From a virus: a stretch of DNA of 5,205 bases. Shown here one piece after another: positions 1-5,205 of the stretch. The DNA is taken from the IMG/VR virus record IMGVR_UViG_3300045988_166337, positions 1 to 5,205 of that record; one strand, written 5' to 3'. Every line of letters begins with the position of its first letter. The stretch's first letter is position 1. The notes below the pieces were generated by a model. It did not search any database. It was not told the origin of the DNA and saw nothing but the letters and a program-made list of their open reading frames with translations. The position numbers were made by a program, and so were the translations under genes.

Positions 1-119
1 AACCATAACTACTAATATCGCCAGCAATGGCGGAAACTTGATCAAGGTAATCTGTAGGAATCTGCAAAAAATCCGAATTTATCTGGGGAACAGCAGCAGG
101 AGTAGTACCTGTAGCACCA
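1..119. repeat. Terminal redundancy: bases 1-119 are identical to 5087-5205. This is the assembly overlap of a circular 5,086-nt genome, not a biological LTR or att site.
   Basis: Checked base by base: 'aaccataactactaatatcgccagc...gtagcacca' is present at both ends, offset by 5086. The repeat lies inside the VP1 coding frame, and joining the ends restores one continuous ORF. Confidence 0.95.
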
Positions 120-1516
120 AATGTTCTCTGAAGAGCAAACGACATAAGGGAAGCACCGTCGCGCAGAATTCCATGAACCTCATCCATTTTGTCCTTCCAA
201 TTACTATAACGGTCATTATAACCGAACACGTCATCACCAGCGGTGATTGCTTGGTCGGAGGACAACTGACGGGCATAGATTGGCTCGTTACCTACGTTCT
301 GAAGAATAGGATTAGCCATATCAGATTGAGAATCTTGAATAAGATAACGGGTAAGAATAGGGTCAACACCTGTAGAATAAGTAACCTTTGGAGACAACCA
401 CGTAACGACCATGAGGTACCCGGGCTCCATAGCTGTAAATCCATCGATTACAAGGTCATTGCCATCTACAAAGGCCGAACCGAACTTAGCAGCCATACCA
501 GACATAGGATTATTGAGGCTGTCGCTCGAATCATAGAAATTGGAGGTCTGATATACACCTTTTGAATAGACATCGAAAGAGCCAGAACCAAGGAGAACAG
601 GACGCTGTGCGATAGCGTCATTTAGGTTAGCACCATACTGGGCTTTGACGTAATCGACAAGACGATTTCCTGCAAGATTGTTACGCTCCAAGAATTGCTG
701 CATAGAATTGGCCGCACGAAGAGCGCTAATGGTAAACTTACCTGTGGCGGCTGAAGTATCGAAAGAAACAGACTGGGCGATACCATTTTGAGGAGACGGA
801 GTGCAAGAGGTGTATAGGTCAGAGCCAAAATTAGCCTGGCGAAGTGCTGTAATATCGACACCGTCAGCGAACTTTGAACCTCCAGCAGTAGCTTCGGTAG
901 AAGCAGAGTTAAACGTAAATGTATTACGATTCGCAGCAAGACTGCAAGGAACAACGACAGAAGAAGTAGCAGGGTTATACACAACAGACGCAGCAAGGGC
1001 GTTATTAAAAATATCCTTCTGAACAAGGCTGTTTCTGAACCAATCATTATATATCTTGTGATATGCAAGCATAGGCAGAGCGGAAAGCTTGACACCCTGT
1101 AACTCGGTAAAAGAAGTATGGGCACACTTATAGCCAAGATAGTCGAGAAGTGATCCGTTACCATAAGCGGCTTTATCTGTCTCTGGGTTGAAATAGAGAG
1201 TAGGCAAAACTACCTTTGCGGAGGTAGTGCCATTTGCTTTACCTGTAAGCCAATCCTCATAACGAGCAACGAGAATACGGGTAGGAACAAAGAAAGCAGC
1301 GTATTTCTGGCGAACACGCATGAAAGTATCTGACGCAAGAGGCGGCAGCTGAGTAGTAATCGCCATACGTAGGCGAACAGTGGTGTTCGGTATCAATTCG
1401 TCTGTTAGAATTGGGATTATCGTACCGACTTTACCAGTGAACAGGTTCTGAAATGATTTATCAAAACCCGATTTGCGTTGTACCTTAATGGGTACTTTGT
1501 CGTAAATGTTTGCCAT
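1..1516 (-). CDS. Microviridae major capsid protein VP1 (F-protein family). Start is ATG at 1516..1514. The frame stays open to window position 1 and continues by circular wrap through 5086..4953, giving 549 aa in total. Within the window this is 3'-partial.
   Basis: I translated the minus frame codon by codon from 1516 to 1 and found no stop. The N-terminus reads MANIYDKVPIKVQRKSGFDKSFQNLFTGKVGTIIPILTDELIPNTTVRLRMAITTQLPPLASDTFMRVRQKYAAFFVPTRILVARYEDWL. The PxxDTF and FFVP-R-W signature is typical of microvirus VP1/F jelly-roll capsid proteins. The wrap-around C-terminus is confirmed by track ORF 4953..5153(-), whose apparent start is an internal TTG (Leu). Confidence 0.92.
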   Translation of the reverse strand, partial: MANIYDKVPIKVQRKSGFDKSFQNLFTGKVGTIIPILTDELIPNTTVRLRMAITTQLPPLASDTFMRVRQKYAAFFVPTRILVARYEDWLTGKANGTTSAKVVLPTLYFNPETDKAAYGNGSLLDYLGYKCAHTSFTELQGVKLSALPMLAYHKIYNDWFRNSLVQKDIFNNALAASVVYNPATSSVVVPCSLAANRNTFTFNSASTEATAGGSKFADGVDITALRQANFGSDLYTSCTPSPQNGIAQSVSFDTSAATGKFTISALRAANSMQQFLERNNLAGNRLVDYVKAQYGANLNDAIAQRPVLLGSGSFDVYSKGVYQTSNFYDSSDSLNNPMSGMAAKFGSAFVDGNDLVIDGFTAMEPGYLMVVTWLSPKVTYSTGVDPILTRYLIQDSQSDMANPILQNVGNEPIYARQLSSDQAITAGDDVFGYNDRYSNWKDKMDEVHGILRDGASLMSFALQRTFGATGTTPAAVPQINSDFLQIPTDYLDQVSAIAGDISSYG

Positions 1517-1530
1517 ATCTTTTTTTTTTG

Positions 1531-1563
1531 TTGCGCATTGCGCCCAAGGGCGCGGCTGCGCAG
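1531..1563. other. GC-rich structured element in the ORF184-VP1 intergenic region. It has tandem TTGCGCA/TTGCGCC (1531-1543), the palindrome GCGCCCAAGGGCGC (1540-1553) and the palindrome CTGCGCAG (1556-1563). It is followed by T10 (plus strand) directly upstream of the VP1 ATG.
   Basis: Read directly from the sequence. Possible roles are a complementary-strand origin or a Rep/packaging recognition region, and these are inference only. Confidence 0.5.
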
Positions 1564-1594
1564 TATGCTTTGAGAAAAGGTCAAACGCTTCGCG

Positions 1595-2149
1595 TTAGCC
1601 TATATGAGTTGCGCAATGATGGCGCAACTCTCGTCGCTCGTCGCTCCGTACGCTTTGGAAAAGCTGCGAAAGCAAAATTTTGTCAGAAGCACCGCTAAAG
1701 CGATGCTTAAGGTTAAGACTTGGAGGACAGCCAAGGGAAAGCGCATCACGAGAGAAACTGAAGAACATTGGCGTACATCGGTGGTGTAGGTTGTCTGTTT
1801 GGCTGTAAGATGAACTGGCGTAGGCGTTAGCACGCAGCGTTATTTTTCCGTTGTCCGTACGGTTGTTCGGACAACTTCGGAAAAATAGTCGAGTGCAAGA
1901 CGTTTTCCTAGGATTGAAATTTAGTCCGATAGTGTCCTGCTTGTTAGTAACGTTTACGGTGGTTGGGTTGTTGGTTGTGATTGTGACGGTTGCGGAAGTG
2001 TTTTCAGAGGAGGCACGAACAACAGCTTTAGTGTTCGCACAAGATGAAAGAGACCAAGCACCAGCAAAGGCAAGTGCAAGAAGCACGAAAAGGCGAAGCC
2101 ATAACGGCAAGGCTTTCAGCCACGAGAGAATTTTTTCTAGAGTTTGCAT
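1595..2149 (-). CDS. Putative secreted lipoprotein, 184 aa. The N-terminus MQTLEKILSWLKALPLWLRLFVLLALAFAGAWSLSSC- is a signal peptide ending in a lipobox (L-S-S-C). It is followed by a Thr/Asn-rich linker (TSATVTITTNNPTTVNVTNKQDT) and a Cys/Arg/His-rich C-terminal part.
   Basis: ATG at 2149..2147, 17 nt after the Rep stop and on the same strand. The n-region, h-region and LSSC lipobox are clear. The 3' half (about 1595-1900) coincides with GC-rich hairpins and repeats and has an odd amino-acid composition, so the true C-terminus is uncertain. Confidence 0.4.
   Translation of the reverse strand: MQTLEKILSWLKALPLWLRLFVLLALAFAGAWSLSSCANTKAVVRASSENTSATVTITTNNPTTVNVTNKQDTIGLNFNPRKTSCTRLFFRSCPNNRTDNGKITLRANAYASSSYSQTDNLHHRCTPMFFSFSRDALSLGCPPSLNLKHRFSGASDKILLSQLFQSVRSDERRELRHHCATHIG
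1607..1650. other. Perfect hairpin AGTTGCGC-AATGATG-GCGCAACT (8-bp stem, 1607-1629). It carries a third copy of TTGCGC and its inverse, and is followed immediately by the tandem heptamer CTCGTCG CTCGTCG CTCCGTA (1630-1650).
   Basis: Inverted and direct repeats verified base by base. The element lies inside the 3' end of the putative lipoprotein ORF. Confidence 0.55.
1843..1885. other. Compound inverted repeat TTTTTCCG-TTGTCCG-TACGGTTGTT-CGGACAA-CTT-CGGAAAAA. The outer stem is 8 bp and the inner stem 7 bp, and it contains the palindrome CCGTACGG.
   Basis: Outer arms are 1843-1850/1878-1885 and inner arms 1851-1857/1868-1874. This is a candidate ssDNA secondary structure (sso-like) and it overlaps ORF184 codons. 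Confidence 0.5.
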
Positions 2150-2156
2150 ATAAATA

Positions 2157-2474
2157 TTAGAAATGATTAAAATTTGCTTTTTCTGAATGCTGCAAGATTA
2201 GTTTCGATGATAGTTTGCGCTCTTTGCGCTCGTTCACGCTTTTCGCTATCGCATACAATTTTGGACACGATAGCATACGTTTCATAACTTTCTGGAAGAT
2301 GTTCGTTGGCTGCCAATTGACGACATTTTCCAATAAAGTCTTGTTGAATGCGTTCTTGTAGAGCTCTCGACACCATCGTTGATAACGCAGTCGGGCGATA
2401 ACGCCCTGTAAGCGCATCTTTAACATAGAGTAATCGCATACGATAGTAGCGTGGGAGTTTGTATTGTTTTCCAT
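2157..2474 (-). CDS. Possible overlapping ORF (105 aa, strongly basic) in an alternative frame within the Rep 3' end. It ends 8 nt before the lipoprotein ORF start. This is speculative.
   Basis: True ATG at 2474..2472 and TAA at 2159..2157. About 19 K/R against 7 D/E. Microviruses do carry overlapping genes, but a random frame could give the same result. Confidence 0.15.
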   Translation of the reverse strand: MENNTNSHATIVCDYSMLKMRLQGVIARLRYQRWCRELYKNAFNKTLLENVVNWQPTNIFQKVMKRMLSCPKLYAIAKSVNERKERKLSSKLILQHSEKANFNHF

Positions 2475-3495
2475 TACATTTGTATTTTAATGATGTTGAC
2501 AATCTTTCAACTTGTTTACTTAACCAAAAAGGGTTTACGCCTGTAAACTGGTCGAAACTGGGCAAGTCCGACAAGTCGCCTAAAACGTCCTTACGAAGCT
2601 GCTTATCTCGTTTACGTGTGGGTACACCGAAGCCGATAGATGTAACCTTACGAGGCTTGGCAACCAATCCTTTGACTACAGCTGAATCTTCCAAACATTT
2701 CTGTTTGGTAATGTACTTGGATACATAACGAGCTGTGCGCTCTACATCGCAGGAAGCGATTTTTTTGAAGCAGGTGTAACCGTAATGAGTTTCCCAGTCT
2801 TTTTTGAATCTCATCACATCTTCATCAGATAATCCAACGAGAAGACCGTGGTAATGTGGTCTATGGGTACGAGGTCCATATTCTCCACAAATGAGGTAGC
2901 CGAAATCAACCTTACGGCCAGCGTGGTAGTCAATTTGCCTACGTACGCGCTTTTTCCATAGCTGAATATCTCTGTTATTGAGCGAATAGAGATTACACGG
3001 CCGTTCTCCGGTTTCCTCATCATATATATCACTATCAGAGATAGAATTTTCTGATTCTATATCCAAAGCAGCATAGTCTAGACCATGCCATTTATTTTCT
3101 TTCAAGGATGGAACATCGTAGTAAGAATCGAAGGGCATATCATTCGAATAATCGTCAACCTCGTCAGTCTGGAGGTAGAAATCAGAATTCTCTTCGAGCG
3201 GCTCACAATGTGGAGCGAAAGAAGCAGGACGATATCTTGACGGGTTTTTAAGTATAGGCACAAGATCACGCTCTATAACCTCTCCGTCAGCATCGAAAGC
3301 AACAGGAACGTGATCGTTTGCGTATGTGAGAGTGATAAACCAGAGCGAACCTCTTTTGGCTTGCTCCTCAATAGTACGGATAACAAAGGCGTTCTGATTG
3401 TCTTTAACACATTCAGGACATTTGCCGCAAGGTACATGAACGATTGTCTTTCGTCCACAGACCTCACGGGTTAATTGTACTGGGAAAACACACAT
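2167..3495 (-). CDS. Microviridae VP4 replication initiation protein (HUH rolling-circle endonuclease, A-protein family), 442 aa.
   Basis: ATG 3495..3493 and TAA 2169..2167. The N-terminal Cys cluster VPCGKCPEC is typical of gokushovirus VP4. RCR motif 1 is FITLTY (aa 53-58), motif 2 is PHYHGLL (HYH at 2848-2856) and motif 3 is ARYVSKYITK (Tyr257 at 2725-2727, Tyr261 at 2713-2715), with the same YxxxY spacing as phiX174 protein A. Confidence 0.93.
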   Translation of the reverse strand: MCVFPVQLTREVCGRKTIVHVPCGKCPECVKDNQNAFVIRTIEEQAKRGSLWFITLTYANDHVPVAFDADGEVIERDLVPILKNPSRYRPASFAPHCEPLEENSDFYLQTDEVDDYSNDMPFDSYYDVPSLKENKWHGLDYAALDIESENSISDSDIYDEETGERPCNLYSLNNRDIQLWKKRVRRQIDYHAGRKVDFGYLICGEYGPRTHRPHYHGLLVGLSDEDVMRFKKDWETHYGYTCFKKIASCDVERTARYVSKYITKQKCLEDSAVVKGLVAKPRKVTSIGFGVPTRKRDKQLRKDVLGDLSDLPSFDQFTGVNPFWLSKQVERLSTSLKYKCNGKQYKLPRYYRMRLLYVKDALTGRYRPTALSTMVSRALQERIQQDFIGKCRQLAANEHLPESYETYAIVSKIVCDSEKRERAQRAQTIIETNLAAFRKSKF

Positions 3496-3567
3496 AGCTA
3501 TTAACTAATTACTTTGTTTGCACCACAAAGATAGTAATAATATATAAATAAAACTATTTTTTTTGAA
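3496..3567 (-). promoter_or_regulatory. AT-rich 72-nt VP2-Rep intergenic spacer. On the coding strand it reads TAATTCAAAAAAAATAGTTTTATTTATATATTATTACTATCTTTGTGGTGCAAACAAAGTAATTAGTTAATAGCT(ATG). It contains TATCTTTG, which matches the Bacteroidetes -7 consensus TAnnTTTG, and a small hairpin CTTTGT/ACAAAG (3512-3530).
   Basis: The motif match and the inverted repeat are read directly from the sequence. Promoter function is inferred only by analogy to the Bacteroides sigma-AB consensus. Confidence 0.25.
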
Positions 3568-4548
3568 TTATTTTCCTACACCTTTGGCAAGTTGACCAAT
3601 AACACCTTGGTTTACACCTCCAAAAAGTTTTGACAAGATAGTAGCGGCTTGGATAAAGTCCTTTGCTAACTTTCCAGAAGTCTTTGAAGTGTCGAAAATA
3701 TTTCCGCTACGTATAAGATATTCGTATTCATCGGCAGTCTTACGAACTTCCTTTTCGTCAGCACTGGCGTTCTGTTCTCTGACCATAGCGGTGATATAGC
3801 CACTATCGATAAGTCCTTGCTCATAAGCGGCATGGACGAACTGGGCAGCGGCAGAAGCTTTTGCAGCTTCAGTCTGGGCAGACATCAAAGATCGCTGAAA
3901 CGGCAAAAGAGTAACGAGATTCTTAATCTCCTGATCGGTCTTACGCTCAATAGCTTTGCGCAATGAAGTTTCAGCAGCAGTAAGTAATCGACGCTCTTCC
4001 TCAGTAGCGGCTTGTTTTTTGAGTAGTTCAACCTCTTCACCAATCTTGGATATATTAGCTTTAATCTGCGAAATCTGGACATCACTGAGCTGTAGGCTAA
4101 GCTTCAGACCTTTCATGAGCAAATCATTATAGTCGTCACGTACTTTAGCATCTTTTTCCTTCAAGTCTGCATCTGCATTCTTGAGGCGTATATCAGCGTC
4201 AGCCAACTTATTTTGGATAGATAACTGCCTGGACTGCATAGCGAGCTGGGCAACCTGCGACAAGTCAAGCAAAGGAGTATTTACGTTGGCACCTTGAGCC
4301 TGGGCACTTGAAGTACCCTGTGTTGAAACTCCACCAGACATAGCCAAGGCAGGATTAACGCCTGCGGCTTGCATATCTGCAACAGTTCTTTGATATTTTG
4401 TACTATCAATTTGCTGGTTAAACTCACGCGAGCGTTGCGCTTCATACTTATTGAAAATATTTTGCTCTCTGCGAACCTTATCAGTATAGTTGCGGTTACT
4501 CATATTAGCGTATTGCTGAAGTAACGCTGTAAGGAATGCAAGTCCCAT
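3568..4548 (-). CDS. Microviridae VP2 minor capsid / DNA pilot protein (H-protein analogue), 326 aa.
   Basis: ATG at 4548..4546 (MGLAFLTALLQQYANMSNRNYTDK...) and TAA at 3570..3568. It contains the conserved ...ADMQAAGVNPALAM motif (GVNP at 4351-4362) followed by long Q/A/K/E-rich coiled-coil-like sequence, which is typical of gokushovirus VP2. The track's upstream extension begins at a TTG inside the ori-like hairpin, and I reject it. Confidence 0.82.
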   Translation of the reverse strand: MGLAFLTALLQQYANMSNRNYTDKVRREQNIFNKYEAQRSREFNQQIDSTKYQRTVADMQAAGVNPALAMSGGVSTQGTSSAQAQGANVNTPLLDLSQVAQLAMQSRQLSIQNKLADADIRLKNADADLKEKDAKVRDDYNDLLMKGLKLSLQLSDVQISQIKANISKIGEEVELLKKQAATEEERRLLTAAETSLRKAIERKTDQEIKNLVTLLPFQRSLMSAQTEAAKASAAAQFVHAAYEQGLIDSGYITAMVREQNASADEKEVRKTADEYEYLIRSGNIFDTSKTSGKLAKDFIQAATILSKLFGGVNQGVIGQLAKGVGK

Positions 4549-4575
4549 ATCTTTTATTTTTTTAATTGAACCTGA

Positions 4576-4596
4576 ACACACGGGGGGGGCGTGTGT
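4576..4596 (-). other. Hairpin ACACACG-(G)7-CGTGTGT (coding strand: ACACACG-C7-CGTGTGT), with a G8 homopolymer on the plus strand at 4582-4589. It lies 2 nt from the ori-like hairpin and 27 nt upstream of the VP2 ATG.
   Basis: Perfect 7-bp inverted repeat 4576-4582/4590-4596 enclosing a G homopolymer, in a genome that is otherwise AT-leaning. Confidence 0.55.
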
Positions 4597-4598
4597 CA

Positions 4599-4631
4599 CC
4601 TCGCATATTAATATCAAGTAAAGGTGCGAGG
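4599..4631 (-). promoter_or_regulatory. Candidate rolling-circle (viral-strand) origin. The hairpin stem is CCTCGCA/TGCGAGG (7 bp). On the coding strand its 19-nt loop reads CCTTTACTTGATATTAATA, which contains ACTTG^ATATTAATA, identical over 14 nt to the phiX174 gene-A nick-site core.
   Basis: Seen directly: plus 4606-4619 'tattaatatcaagt' is the reverse complement of ACTTGATATTAATA. The inverted repeat is 4599-4605/4625-4631. It is intergenic, immediately after the ORF85 stop. phiX174 ori is recalled as CAACTTG^ATATTAATAACACTATAGACCAC. Confidence 0.5.
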
Positions 4632-4632
4632 C

Positions 4633-4890
4633 TTACTCCTGCTTAACAGGAGCGGGGTCTTTTATTGTACCTTTGTCCTTGATATAGTCTCCCATACGGT
4701 ACGCATCAAACACGTCTGAAGGCTTGCCGAGTATCTCGGCAGGGTCTTCTATGCCATTATATTGGTCTTCAGAATCTGCAATTGAAGCAGGAACTTCGCC
4801 GTTAGCAAGACATTCGTTGAGGTCTACAAATCCGAATTGGTCAACCTCTTGTATATCCCTATCTGGATTAAATTTACATTCGCAAAACAT
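4633..4890 (-). CDS. Hypothetical small acidic protein of 85 aa (MFCECKFNPDRDIQEVDQFGFVDLNECLANGEVPASIADSEDQYNGIEDPAEILGKPSDVFDAYRMGDYIKDKGTIKDPAPVKQE). It sits between VP1 and VP2 and its function is unknown.
   Basis: ATG at 4890..4888 and TAA at 4635..4633, on the same strand as all other genes, in the gap between VP1 and VP2. The track's longer 102-aa version starts at a TTG (4941) that lies inside the terminator hairpin, so I prefer the ATG. I recognise no family motif. Confidence 0.45.
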   Translation of the reverse strand: MFCECKFNPDRDIQEVDQFGFVDLNECLANGEVPASIADSEDQYNGIEDPAEILGKPSDVFDAYRMGDYIKDKGTIKDPAPVKQE

Positions 4891-4907
4891 GACAATAATT
4901 TTATAAA

Positions 4908-4932
4908 GGGGAGAGGTGCTGGAACTCTCCCC
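4908..4932 (-). terminator. Candidate intrinsic terminator or attenuator just downstream of VP1. Stem GGGGAGAG/CTCTCCCC (8 bp) with a 9-nt loop. On the coding strand it is followed by the T-rich stretch TTTATAAAATTATTGTC.
   Basis: Perfect 8-bp GC-rich inverted repeat 4908-4915/4925-4932, 21 nt after the VP1 stop. The U-rich tract follows it on the transcribed (minus) strand. Microviruses are known to use leaky terminators after the capsid gene. Confidence 0.4.
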
Positions 4933-4952
4933 AGGAAACAAAAAACTTTTAG

Positions 4953-5205
4953 CTATGAAAGCTGCTTACCAGCACGGTCAAGCAAGACGTCATCGCCATG
5001 CTCATAAGCAGGATCCTGAAGTGAAGGAATACAAAAACGGGCAAGCGGCATGGAGACCTTATAGTCGAAGAAAGTATCTGACCAATAACCATAACTACTA
5101 ATATCGCCAGCAATGGCGGAAACTTGATCAAGGTAATCTGTAGGAATCTGCAAAAAATCCGAATTTATCTGGGGAACAGCAGCAGGAGTAGTACCTGTAG
5201 CACCA
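4953..5205 (-). CDS. C-terminal segment of the same VP1 gene, 5'-partial in the window. 5087-5205 duplicates 1-119, and the stop codon TAA is at 4955..4953.
   Basis: The frame is continuous with 1..1516(-) once the 5086-nt unit is closed. Translation ...GTTGTAAPVPQINSDFLQIPTDYLDQVSAIAGDISSYGYWSDTFFDYKVSMPLARFCIPSLQDPAYEHGDDVLLDRAGKQLS*. Confidence 0.9.
   Translation of the reverse strand, partial: GATGTTPAAVPQINSDFLQIPTDYLDQVSAIAGDISSYGYWSDTFFDYKVSMPLARFCIPSLQDPAYEHGDDVLLDRAGKQLS

Follow-up and report, generated by a model that had tools for sequence, protein, structure and literature searches.

A predicted small lipoprotein of microviruses, encoded by the first 82 codons of a longer reading frame, and its possible role in lysis

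We analysed a 5,205-nucleotide (nt) stretch of viral DNA (positions 1 to 5,205 of IMG/VR record IMGVR_UViG_3300045988_166337, hereafter the window) and, within it, an open reading frame (ORF) of 184 amino acids that runs from an ATG at 2149 down to 1595 on the minus strand. We are highly confident that the real gene consists of the first 82 codons of this ORF (1904-2149, minus strand) and encodes a prelipoprotein. The codons that follow run through a structured DNA element that is specific to the clade of this virus. As for function, we tentatively favor a lysis-type action of the lipoprotein in the host envelope. The features concerned, all on the minus strand, are as follows.

1904-2149, minus strand: conserved prelipoprotein gene proper, codons 1-82 (MQTLEKILSWLKALPLWLRLFVLLALAFAGAWSLSSC followed by ANTKAVVRASSENTSATVTITTNNPTTVNVTNKQDTIGLNFNPRK); the ratio of nonsynonymous to synonymous differences (pN/pS) is low and homologues end here.
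2042-2149, minus strand: signal peptide, residues 1-36, with a long n-region containing an amphipathic helix (residues 2-12), an LPLWLR motif and a 15-residue h-region.
2039-2050, minus strand: lipobox L34-S35-S36-C37, with the Cys codon at 2039-2041.
1904-2041, minus strand: predicted mature lipopeptide of 46 amino acids, Thr/Asn/Val-rich and beta-strand-prone, with the family motif T-I-T-T-N-N-P-T.
1928-1936, minus strand: D72-T73-I74, a match to the Bacteroidetes O-glycosylation sequon.
1595-1903, minus strand: read-through extension, codons 83-184 and the stop.
1517-1903, minus strand: structured DNA element of about 390 nt, clade-specific, lying after the lipoprotein core and before the start of the capsid gene (1516).
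1842-1886, minus strand: hairpin H1, ATTTTTCCG-AA-GTTGTCCG...CGGACAAC-GGAAAAAT.
1606-1630, minus strand: hairpin H4, GAGTTGCGC-CATCATT-GCGCAACTC, inside 'codons' 173-181.
1579-1600, minus strand: hairpin H5, spanning the ORF stop codon (1595-1597); pair 328/336 occurs as CG/GC/UA and pair 330/334 as CG/UA.
1532-1562, minus strand: hairpin H6, GC-rich, then an A10 tract just ahead of the capsid ATG; taken from the centroid fold, with pair 366/386 as CG/AU.

The boundary at codon 82 is apparent both from the relatives of the protein and from the pattern of substitution. A database search returned 16 relatives, and their alignment with the window ORF has 37 invariant columns within residues 1-82, a highly conserved stretch. 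Of the 16, twelve end immediately past ...FNP(K/R)K, and an extension of about 100 residues is common to only three close relatives (P0001-3). A profile search of 1.8 billion cluster representatives recovered 82 clusters at 50% identity, nearly all 54-107 amino acids long, while at least 221 clusters at 90% identity, almost all of 81-86 amino acids, emerged from public metagenomes in a second search of this kind. For a codon-level comparison, the window DNA was aligned with four related genomes (L013, L011, L014 and L017). Codons 1-82 gave a dN/dS (calculated as pN/pS) of 0.04-0.09, with substitutions distributed over the three codon positions as, for example, 6/1/22 and a synonymous divergence (pS) of 0.21-0.50. 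Codons 83-184 gave a dN/dS of 0.67-1.16, a flat codon-position spectrum (for example 15/15/16) and a pS of 0.07-0.21. The reading frame of the core is retained in its relatives. These results corroborate a suspicion raised in a preliminary description of this DNA, made from the sequence alone, that the 3' half of the ORF may be shorter or partly spurious: conservation of the protein ceases at about residue 82, and the other 102 codons show no protein-level selection.

Judged by its sequence features, the N-terminus is a textbook signal peptidase II (SPII)-type lipoprotein signal on a real gene. The ORF lies immediately downstream of the replication initiator gene Rep, as had been described, beginning 17 nt past the Rep stop (2167). 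It opens with a positively charged n-region (MQTLEKILSWLKALPLWLR), a reading that also held, with three Lys/Arg residues (K6, K12 and R19) against one Glu (E5) within residues 1-19. The hydrophobic core had been counted as 19 residues, a count that crosses R19; the uninterrupted, uncharged h-region is 15 residues long (L20-L34), with a mean Kyte-Doolittle value of 2.26. The L-S-S-C lipobox recognized in the preliminary description is the most secure feature of the protein, as Cys37 is the sole invariant column among 61 diverse homologues. T40, A42, T59, N61 and P62 are conserved at 90% or more in the same set, and the family motif can be written ...C-G/A-x-T-K/R-A-V-V-R...T-I-T-T-N-N-P-T... 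The PROSITE PS51257-type lipobox pattern fits 83 of 94 family members, in all 83 of which position -1 is Ser, Ala or Gly. Upstream of the h-region, L14 P15 L16 W17 L18 R19 is invariant in 17 close homologues, and a W-L-K-x-L-P-x-W-x-R-like motif reappears in distant members of the family.

The mature part had been taken for a Thr/Asn-rich tether, and the 45 residues after the lipobox are indeed 40% Thr+Asn, but this segment is the conserved functional core of the family rather than a tether. Likewise, D72-T73-I74 does fit the O-glycosylation sequon and is retained as DTI, DTV or DSL in 17 of 17 close homologues, yet just 52 of 83 family members possess such a sequon, and we treat DTI as a candidate sequon only. 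The mature N-terminus reads C-A-N-T-K-A, with no acidic residue at +2 to +6. In Bacteroidetes, the export signal of surface-exposed lipoproteins is K-(D/E)2 or Q-A-(D/E)2 just past the Cys (PMC5080379). Since none of the 83 family members has Asp or Glu at +2 to +6, the surface-export signal K-(D/E)2 is absent, and we predict that the lipopeptide remains on the periplasmic side. The core protein ends in ...FNPRK with no hydrophobic segment, and the 184-residue form likewise has no C-terminal transmembrane segment. Structure prediction with AlphaFold2 (AF2), run on alignments of 10 and 61 rows, was informative for the signal peptide and not for the mature part. Confident helices were obtained only for residues 2-12 (amphipathic) and 16-38 (transmembrane), with predicted local distance difference test (pLDDT) scores of 85-91, and the mature part yielded a low-confidence beta-hairpin (53-56/64-67) around N-N-P-T at a pLDDT of about 55. 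The predicted structure therefore suggests no target.

The family is large and without annotation, and it represents a small phage-encoded lipoprotein in a virus family for which the literature we searched describes none. The earlier remark that such a gene is unusual for a microvirus is thus correct for literature and annotation but not for nature, given the number of clusters found. The GenBank record closest to the window (MT135427.1, a porcine 'Microvirus sp.', 83.6% identity) is annotated for capsid, pilot protein and Rep only, and the lipoprotein gene lacks annotation in all four GenBank microvirus records that were matched. Neither the window protein nor a 61-member profile matched Pfam, PHROGs, PADLOC or PDB sequences. 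Curated NCBIfam lipoprotein models (PG1828, LppU, YgdI/YgdR and others) produced weak, sub-threshold matches over the signal and lipobox. The PG1828 family (NF050142, Porphyromonas) is likewise a small Bacteroidales lipoprotein, and its model aligned from the h-region through the lipobox to about the 28th mature residue, with an E value of 4e-4 and a score of 21 bits where the curated cut-off is 50. Ten of the 61 members reached E < 0.01 with this model, and the best of the 61 did no better. Because the match is below the cut-off and dominated by the signal peptide, the window protein is not a member. A tblastn search of GenBank phages with the distant member P0026 gave no match, probably owing to the low-complexity filter and the shortness of the query.

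Two further matches were set aside. Cluster P0004 (112 amino acids, 95% identical) was rejected as evidence of truncation, as both of its contigs diverge inside hairpin H1 and stop some 20 nt further on. A match in a Candidatus Microgenomatus genome (L010) covers just 22 amino acids and was treated as spurious. Two contigs from different samples (L006 2700-2744 and L007 1135-1175) match the window identically through the lipoprotein core and both diverge exactly at the 3' arm of H1. Probably the assembly broke, or formed a chimera, at the hairpin, which would be the source of the spurious 112-residue cluster P0004.

In contrast to the core, the extension is under no protein-level selection for its amino-acid sequence. 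Its pS is 2-3 times below that of the core, which points to constraint at the nucleotide level rather than at the amino-acid level. The extension is missing from all other family clusters listed and is present only in the window clade and in L029, a sister lineage whose capsid, Rep and lipoprotein are 62%, 70% and 71% identical to those of the window. In relatives without the element, the lipoprotein stop adjoins the capsid start with a gap of 0-4 nt. In this clade the stop codon has been lost and the ORF runs on for 102 codons into the structured element. The extension is probably translated, because no stop intervenes.

The preliminary description had noted that the 3' half of the ORF overlaps dense DNA secondary structure, and folding bore this out. 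As single-stranded DNA (ssDNA), 1517-1905 (minus strand) folds with an energy of -68.7 kcal/mol (z = -4.28; 0 of 100 shuffles), whereas the core has z = +0.73. The consensus fold obtained from five relatives contains seven pairs with compensatory double changes. Hairpin H1, which has a homologue in L029 with four compensatory pairs, has 16 pairs, with 99% of cells paired; none of 500 shuffles attained these values. In hairpin H4, three of nine pairs are changed on both sides and none is broken, and the peptide that H4 would encode varies as the stem co-varies (ELRHHCAT, EIRHHCES, EFRHHCET, VFRHHCET). Across relatives, compensatory changes were seen at eleven base pairs of the element, and a further hairpin lies at 1689-1706 (minus strand).

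The coding content of the extension is correspondingly unstable. In MT135427, a 77-nt tandem duplication that includes H1 shifts the frame, and the ORF stops at about 128 amino acids. L029 reads the homologous DNA in another frame, such that GCTGCGTGCTAACGCC specifies L-R-A-N-A in the window and C-C-V-L-T-P in L029. Unlike that of the core, then, the frame of the extension is not conserved. Six Cys had been counted in a supposed Cys-rich part; the count is right, comprising C37 and five in the extension, but there is no Cys-rich domain, as the five are not conserved among the closest relatives. Taken together, the frameshift, the reading in another frame, the covarying hairpins and the unconserved Cys lead us to conclude that the extension is a clade-specific structured DNA element through which the ORF reads. 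Elsewhere, the element matched only MT135427 in the phage collection and one IMG/VR contig, the latter being an exact match to the 26-nt inner part of H1. The complementary-strand origins of phiX174 and G4 contain hairpins. By analogy, the structured element may serve ssDNA replication, for example as a complementary-strand origin, or be another cis element.

The openness of the extension speaks in favor of a functional 184-residue product, which, going by the length of the ORF, would be a two-domain lipoprotein with a Cys-rich, disulfide-bonded periplasmic domain at its C-terminus. All 102 further codons are open in the window and in four related sequences, among which two indels are multiples of 3; the chance of the frame staying open this far under dinucleotide shuffling is P = 0.016. 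The L029 extension (3366-3593), with its stop 13 nt ahead of the capsid ATG, is also open, at P = 0.017. Such a product is nevertheless highly improbable. Its dN/dS and flat codon-position spectrum are those of unselected amino-acid sequence, its Cys positions are unconserved, compensatory changes in the hairpins drive its amino-acid changes, it is cut short by the duplication in MT135427, L029 uses a different frame on homologous DNA and all other family clusters listed end at about 82 amino acids. With openness seen in two frames, selection for ribosome transit, but not for a peptide, is the most that the open frame supports. Pure chance was considered as the sole reason for the open extension and is an uncomfortable one, given P values of 0.016 and 0.017 in two frames. 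We attribute the openness to nucleotide-level freezing, possibly with added selection for translation through the element. We speculate that such selection would favor ribosome transit (coupling or anti-polarity) across the element in whichever frame is available, and not the peptide.

That the ORF is a chance or antisense artefact encoding nothing can be dismissed: although an opposite-strand ORF of 100 amino acids (1851-2153) has its wobble positions aligned and Pfam and PHROG families give no match, a six-frame test of the core found the lowest pooled pN/pS in the sense frame (0.08, against 0.20 for the wobble-aligned antisense frame and more than 2 for the other four), the remaining genes all lie on the same strand, and hundreds of homologues share the invariant lipobox Cys and conserved synteny. 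The existence of the opposite-strand ORF is itself accounted for by the wobble alignment of that frame, with its pN/pS of 0.20.

Next, we considered where the family occurs. All contexts examined were microviral, either free genomes of 4.2-6.9 kb or prophages in bacterial contigs of 13-189 kb, and across them the family is restricted to microviruses and their prophages. One 5.8-kb prophage (L003) is flanked by dif-like repeats, CTTAACATAA-N6-ATTGTGT(A/C)ACAAGA, at 9866-9895 and 15625-15654. Its homologue L008 lies in a Muribaculaceae metagenome-assembled genome and has an attR dif-like copy at 5610-5634; the host DNA around the two prophages shares 75% identity. Xer-dependent integration has been proposed for Bacteroidetes microviruses, and the flanks of L003 agree with that model (PMC3091885). 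The same dif-like motif is found in the free genome L026 at 4962-4986 (TTAACATAA-N6-ATTGTGTAAC). Since L026, with 70% capsid identity, shares the motif of Muribaculaceae prophages, the host of the window virus is probably Muribaculaceae-like, within the Bacteroidales. No dif-like attachment motif was found in the window or its clade, which looks obligately lytic. This speaks against receptor masking in a lysogen, one of the roles first suggested for the ORF, although an Llp-like role in a lytic virus is possible. Temperate and obligately lytic lineages coexist at 70% capsid identity.

The L003 prophage has a lipoprotein 82% identical to that of the window and a capsid only ~20% identical, while L024, L025 and L026, whose capsids are 85%, 83% and 70% identical, have no lipoprotein gene. 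These comparisons indicate that the gene is accessory and horizontally mobile between very different microviruses. In the wider clade (capsid identity of 62% or more), each genome carries one or the other of the lipoprotein and a small transmembrane protein. The lipoprotein occurs without any small transmembrane protein in the window, L013, L011, L014-16, L017, MT135427 and L029; L024 and L025 encode an N-terminal transmembrane protein of 64-75 amino acids, and L026 a 35-residue transmembrane ORF abutting Rep. In L021, a distant family-bearing microvirus, the lipoprotein gene (2607-2888) comes after the capsid and scaffold genes and is followed, just ahead of VP2, by a 93-residue ORF with a C-terminal hydrophobic anchor. 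The position of the gene is therefore not fixed across the family.

How might this protein act? The mechanism we favor, with somewhat less than even confidence and by analogy to known systems, is that of a periplasm-acting, single-gene lysis-type effector. We infer its processing, localization, target and phenotype as follows. The prelipoprotein would be exported by Sec, lipidated on Cys37 by Lgt and cleaved by signal peptidase II (LspA) to a 46-residue Thr/Asn-rich lipopeptide, which would build up in the envelope during infection. There its beta-strand-prone motif would bind a conserved component of the host envelope, and the long conserved signal peptide may add to the effect. The outcome would be envelope failure and virion release, much as with colicin release proteins, to which the lipoprotein is unrelated. 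All assignments of function made here are analogies of mechanism and not of family membership, as the homology tests against known families all failed.

Several observations favor this mechanism. Non-phiX microviruses have no known lysis gene (PMC7062461), and in other microvirus families lysis-associated accessory genes lie between VP4 and VP1 (PMC9239249), the same slot that the lipoprotein gene occupies here. The lipoprotein is the sole membrane-targeted product of the window, the others being the capsid, scaffold-like and pilot proteins, Rep and one soluble overprinted ORF. Close relatives carry either it or a small transmembrane protein, a pattern that fits non-orthologous replacement of a necessary function. 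The 82% identity of the lipoproteins of L003 and the window, against ~20% for the capsids, argues that the target is a conserved one in the host and not specific to the virus. That purifying selection on the lipoprotein is strong in a clade without a dif-like site implies that it matters in the lytic cycle. Finally, small lipoproteins that cause lysis do exist, namely the colicin lysis proteins (PMC2896534).

The colicin lysis proteins, or bacteriocin release proteins (BRPs; Kil, Cel, BRP; Pfam Lysis_col), are likewise SPII lipoproteins of very small size, and they too come from a small selfish replicon. They have no sequence similarity to the family, with no match to Lysis_col or any Pfam entry at E <= 1. 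Their precursors are ~47 and their mature forms ~28 amino acids, against 82 and 46 here, and their hosts are Enterobacteriaceae rather than Bacteroidales; lytic activity of the window protein is putative. The BRP signal peptide is itself functionally important. BRPs cause quasi-lysis and the release of macromolecular cargo (PMC2896534). Spanins such as lambda Rz1 and T1 gp11 are also small phage lipoproteins and act in the envelope step of lysis, a role that for the window protein is putative; unimolecular spanins (u-spanins) have periplasmic parts rich in beta-strands (PMC6139136). In the window, we found no inner-membrane spanin (i-spanin) partner ORF, C-terminal transmembrane domain, intermolecular Cys or Pro-richness, and a single one of the 61 members matched an Rz-like PHROG, at the noise level (E 0.008). 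The E protein of phiX174 is likewise a small, membrane-targeted microvirus protein with a conserved Pro beside a transmembrane helix, and the lipoprotein would fill the same slot. However, E is an uncleaved N-terminal transmembrane protein that is overprinted in gene D and inhibits MraY, whereas the window lipoprotein has a free-standing gene, an invariant lipobox Cys and a conserved, exported peptide. A check of the alternative frames found no overprinted, E-like transmembrane ORF conserved in the window clade.

A broader proposal, which we hold more tentatively than the mechanism itself, is that the family supplies the lysis gene so far missing from a large group of gut Bacteroidales microviruses and constitutes a new class among single-gene lysis effectors. 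If true, the new class would be a lipid-anchored periplasmic peptide that binds a conserved component of envelope biogenesis and so kills from outside the cytoplasmic membrane, unlike phiX174 E, a transmembrane inhibitor of lipid II supply. A lesser novelty would be that lineages which gained the structured element keep the ORF open across it.

A number of points weigh against the lysis-type effector and the lipoprotein on which it is built. No known phage single-gene lysis protein is a lipoprotein, and none appears in the papers on such proteins (Sgls) that we searched. A 105-residue ORF overprinted on Rep (2157-2474) is another possible carrier of an essential function. The either/or pattern represents perhaps two or three evolutionary events and breaks outside the clade, where L003 and L008 hold both the lipoprotein and a transmembrane ORF; L009, an incomplete contig, shows the lipoprotein only, and nothing membrane-like was seen among the other small ORFs checked in L018 and L020. 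Non-essential 'moron' genes, too, typically have a patchy, mobile distribution. AF2 yields no confident fold for the mature part. Lastly, the PROSITE PS51257 rule places the lipobox Cys within residues 15-35, and Cys37 is two residues past that limit. This position results from the long n-region, and the rule is a heuristic and no biochemical requirement.

The transmembrane ORF of the two prophages (L003 15483-15623, L008 5461-5613) deserves description in its own right. It encodes 44-50 amino acids with one transmembrane helix and a basic tail (MSPDTIAIILIAVVALLFLVPYLVRLRLLWHRGSFYKGRKSGRL) and lies between Rep and attR, a location that, once the genome is circular, would fall just ahead of both the attachment site and the lipoprotein gene. 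This ORF is a possible second membrane effector.

Superinfection exclusion or receptor shut-off, as carried out by T5 Llp and phi80 Cor, is possible though on balance unlikely. By this analogy the lipopeptide, in the periplasmic leaflet of the outer membrane, would bind the periplasmic face of the receptor (e.g. a SusC-like TonB-dependent transporter) or block the conduit through which VP2 delivers DNA; further microvirus infection would be blocked and progeny would not be wasted on debris. T5 Llp and the Cor proteins of phi80 and N15 are likewise small stand-alone phage lipoproteins that are predicted to face the periplasm, and they are encoded beside the gene of a receptor-recognizing protein in lytic phages; they are the best-known proteins of this kind, and exclusion is what they do (PMC9586334). 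Here, too, in most relatives just 0-4 nt separate the gene from the capsid, or receptor-recognition, gene, recalling the adjacency of T5 llp and pb5, and its patchy, horizontally mobile distribution is typical of such accessory genes. In one prophage type the lipoprotein gene is the one nearest to attL. Gokushovirus carriage confers superinfection immunity by a mechanism that is unexplained (PMC7062461). For the only cultured Bacteroides microvirus, resistance tracks susC/susD phase variation and loss of adsorption (PMC13064476), which makes a TonB-dependent transporter plausible as the receptor.

Other evidence fits exclusion poorly. The lipoprotein does not co-vary with the capsid, given the identities of 82% and ~20% seen for L003 and capsids that range from 549 to 895 amino acids. 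It is not homologous to Llp or Cor, nor to any PHROG, PADLOC or PDB entry, and, unlike Llp and Cor, which belong to tailed phages, the window lipoprotein comes from an ssDNA microvirus and has neither a confident fold nor a disulfide. The gene shows no tie to a temperate lifestyle, as the dif-bearing L026 lacks it and the dif-less window clade keeps it. A pN/pS of 0.05 bears no sign of an arms race, and alternation with small transmembrane proteins is less expected of an optional function. Superinfection exclusion and a lysis or envelope-targeting factor had both been named in the preliminary description and are the right candidate roles; the evidence does not separate them. A third suggestion made there, a divergent analogue of VP3 or VP5, is unlikely, as a separate 85-residue scaffold-like gene exists (4633-4890) and the mature lipoprotein is predicted to be exported.

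We consider it less probable still, indeed doubtful, that the protein has some other periplasmic role that is neither lysis nor exclusion. Examples would be envelope remodeling or vesicle formation for replication or release, anti-defence, or a released 36-residue signal peptide that acts as a membrane-embedded inhibitor. The signal peptide is unusually long and conserved, with its LPLWLR invariant and its amphipathic and transmembrane helices confidently predicted; the mature part has no confident autonomous fold; and there is no homology to anything characterized. All of these would suit such a role. On the other side, positive evidence favors no specific alternative, and microvirus genomes are very economical, with few accessory functions reported beyond lysis enzymes and methyltransferases (PMC9239249).

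Non-phiX174 microviruses are among the most abundant gut phages, and how they lyse their hosts and what underlies their superinfection immunity have both yet to be explained (PMC7062461); the gene described here bears on one of the two. The family is widespread, strongly conserved and predicted to be exported, and at only 82 codons it can be synthesized and tested directly. If the lipopeptide does have a conserved envelope target in Bacteroidales, it would be of use both as a lead towards a natural 'protein antibiotic' and for probing the biology of lipoproteins and the envelope in that phylum. For this clade, gene callers would give a misleading protein of 184 amino acids, and the correct model is one of 82 amino acids followed by a structured non-coding element.

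The first and last 119 nt of the window are identical, a terminal redundancy that makes it a 5086-nt circle. Its minus strand carries every recognizable gene; in addition to the lipoprotein gene, these are as follows.

1-1516, wrapping to 4953-5086, minus strand: major capsid protein gene, 549 amino acids (PF02305, E 1.5e-46; phrog_514, E 2.6e-70), directly downstream of the lipoprotein ORF.
4633-4890, minus strand: acidic, scaffold-like ORF of 85 amino acids.
3568-4548, minus strand: pilot protein VP2.
2167-3495, minus strand: Rep, a VP4-like replication initiator (PF23343, E 2e-14; phrog_942, E 2e-32), directly upstream of the lipoprotein ORF.

No Bacteroidetes -7 promoter motif was found directly upstream of the lipoprotein gene. 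The nearest such motif on the coding strand is TATCTTTG at 3526-3533, upstream of Rep.

The overprinted ORF at 2157-2474 (minus strand) encodes a basic, soluble protein of 105 amino acids in another frame of the Rep 3' end and stops 8 nt ahead of the lipoprotein ATG. It is fully open in L013, L011, L014, L025, L026 and L029, with 56-85% amino-acid identity, and is the sole alternative-frame ORF conserved in all relatives. Pfam and PHROG gave no match to it. It may be a real overlapping gene, perhaps for a DNA-binding protein or another essential function.

The VP2-Rep intergenic region of the window (3496-3567) is just 72 nt long. In the closest relatives (L013, L015, L017, L011 and MT135427) this slot holds a soluble ORF of 77-85 amino acids, and in L024, L025 and L026 it holds small transmembrane proteins of 35-75 amino acids. 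The accessory ORF of this slot has been lost from the window or was never present. Finally, in the scaffold-VP2 intergenic region (4550-4632), two hairpins were spotted by eye: ACACACG-G7-CGTGTGT at about 4573-4595, and CCTCGCA...TGCGAGG, with a 19-nt loop, at about 4599-4631.

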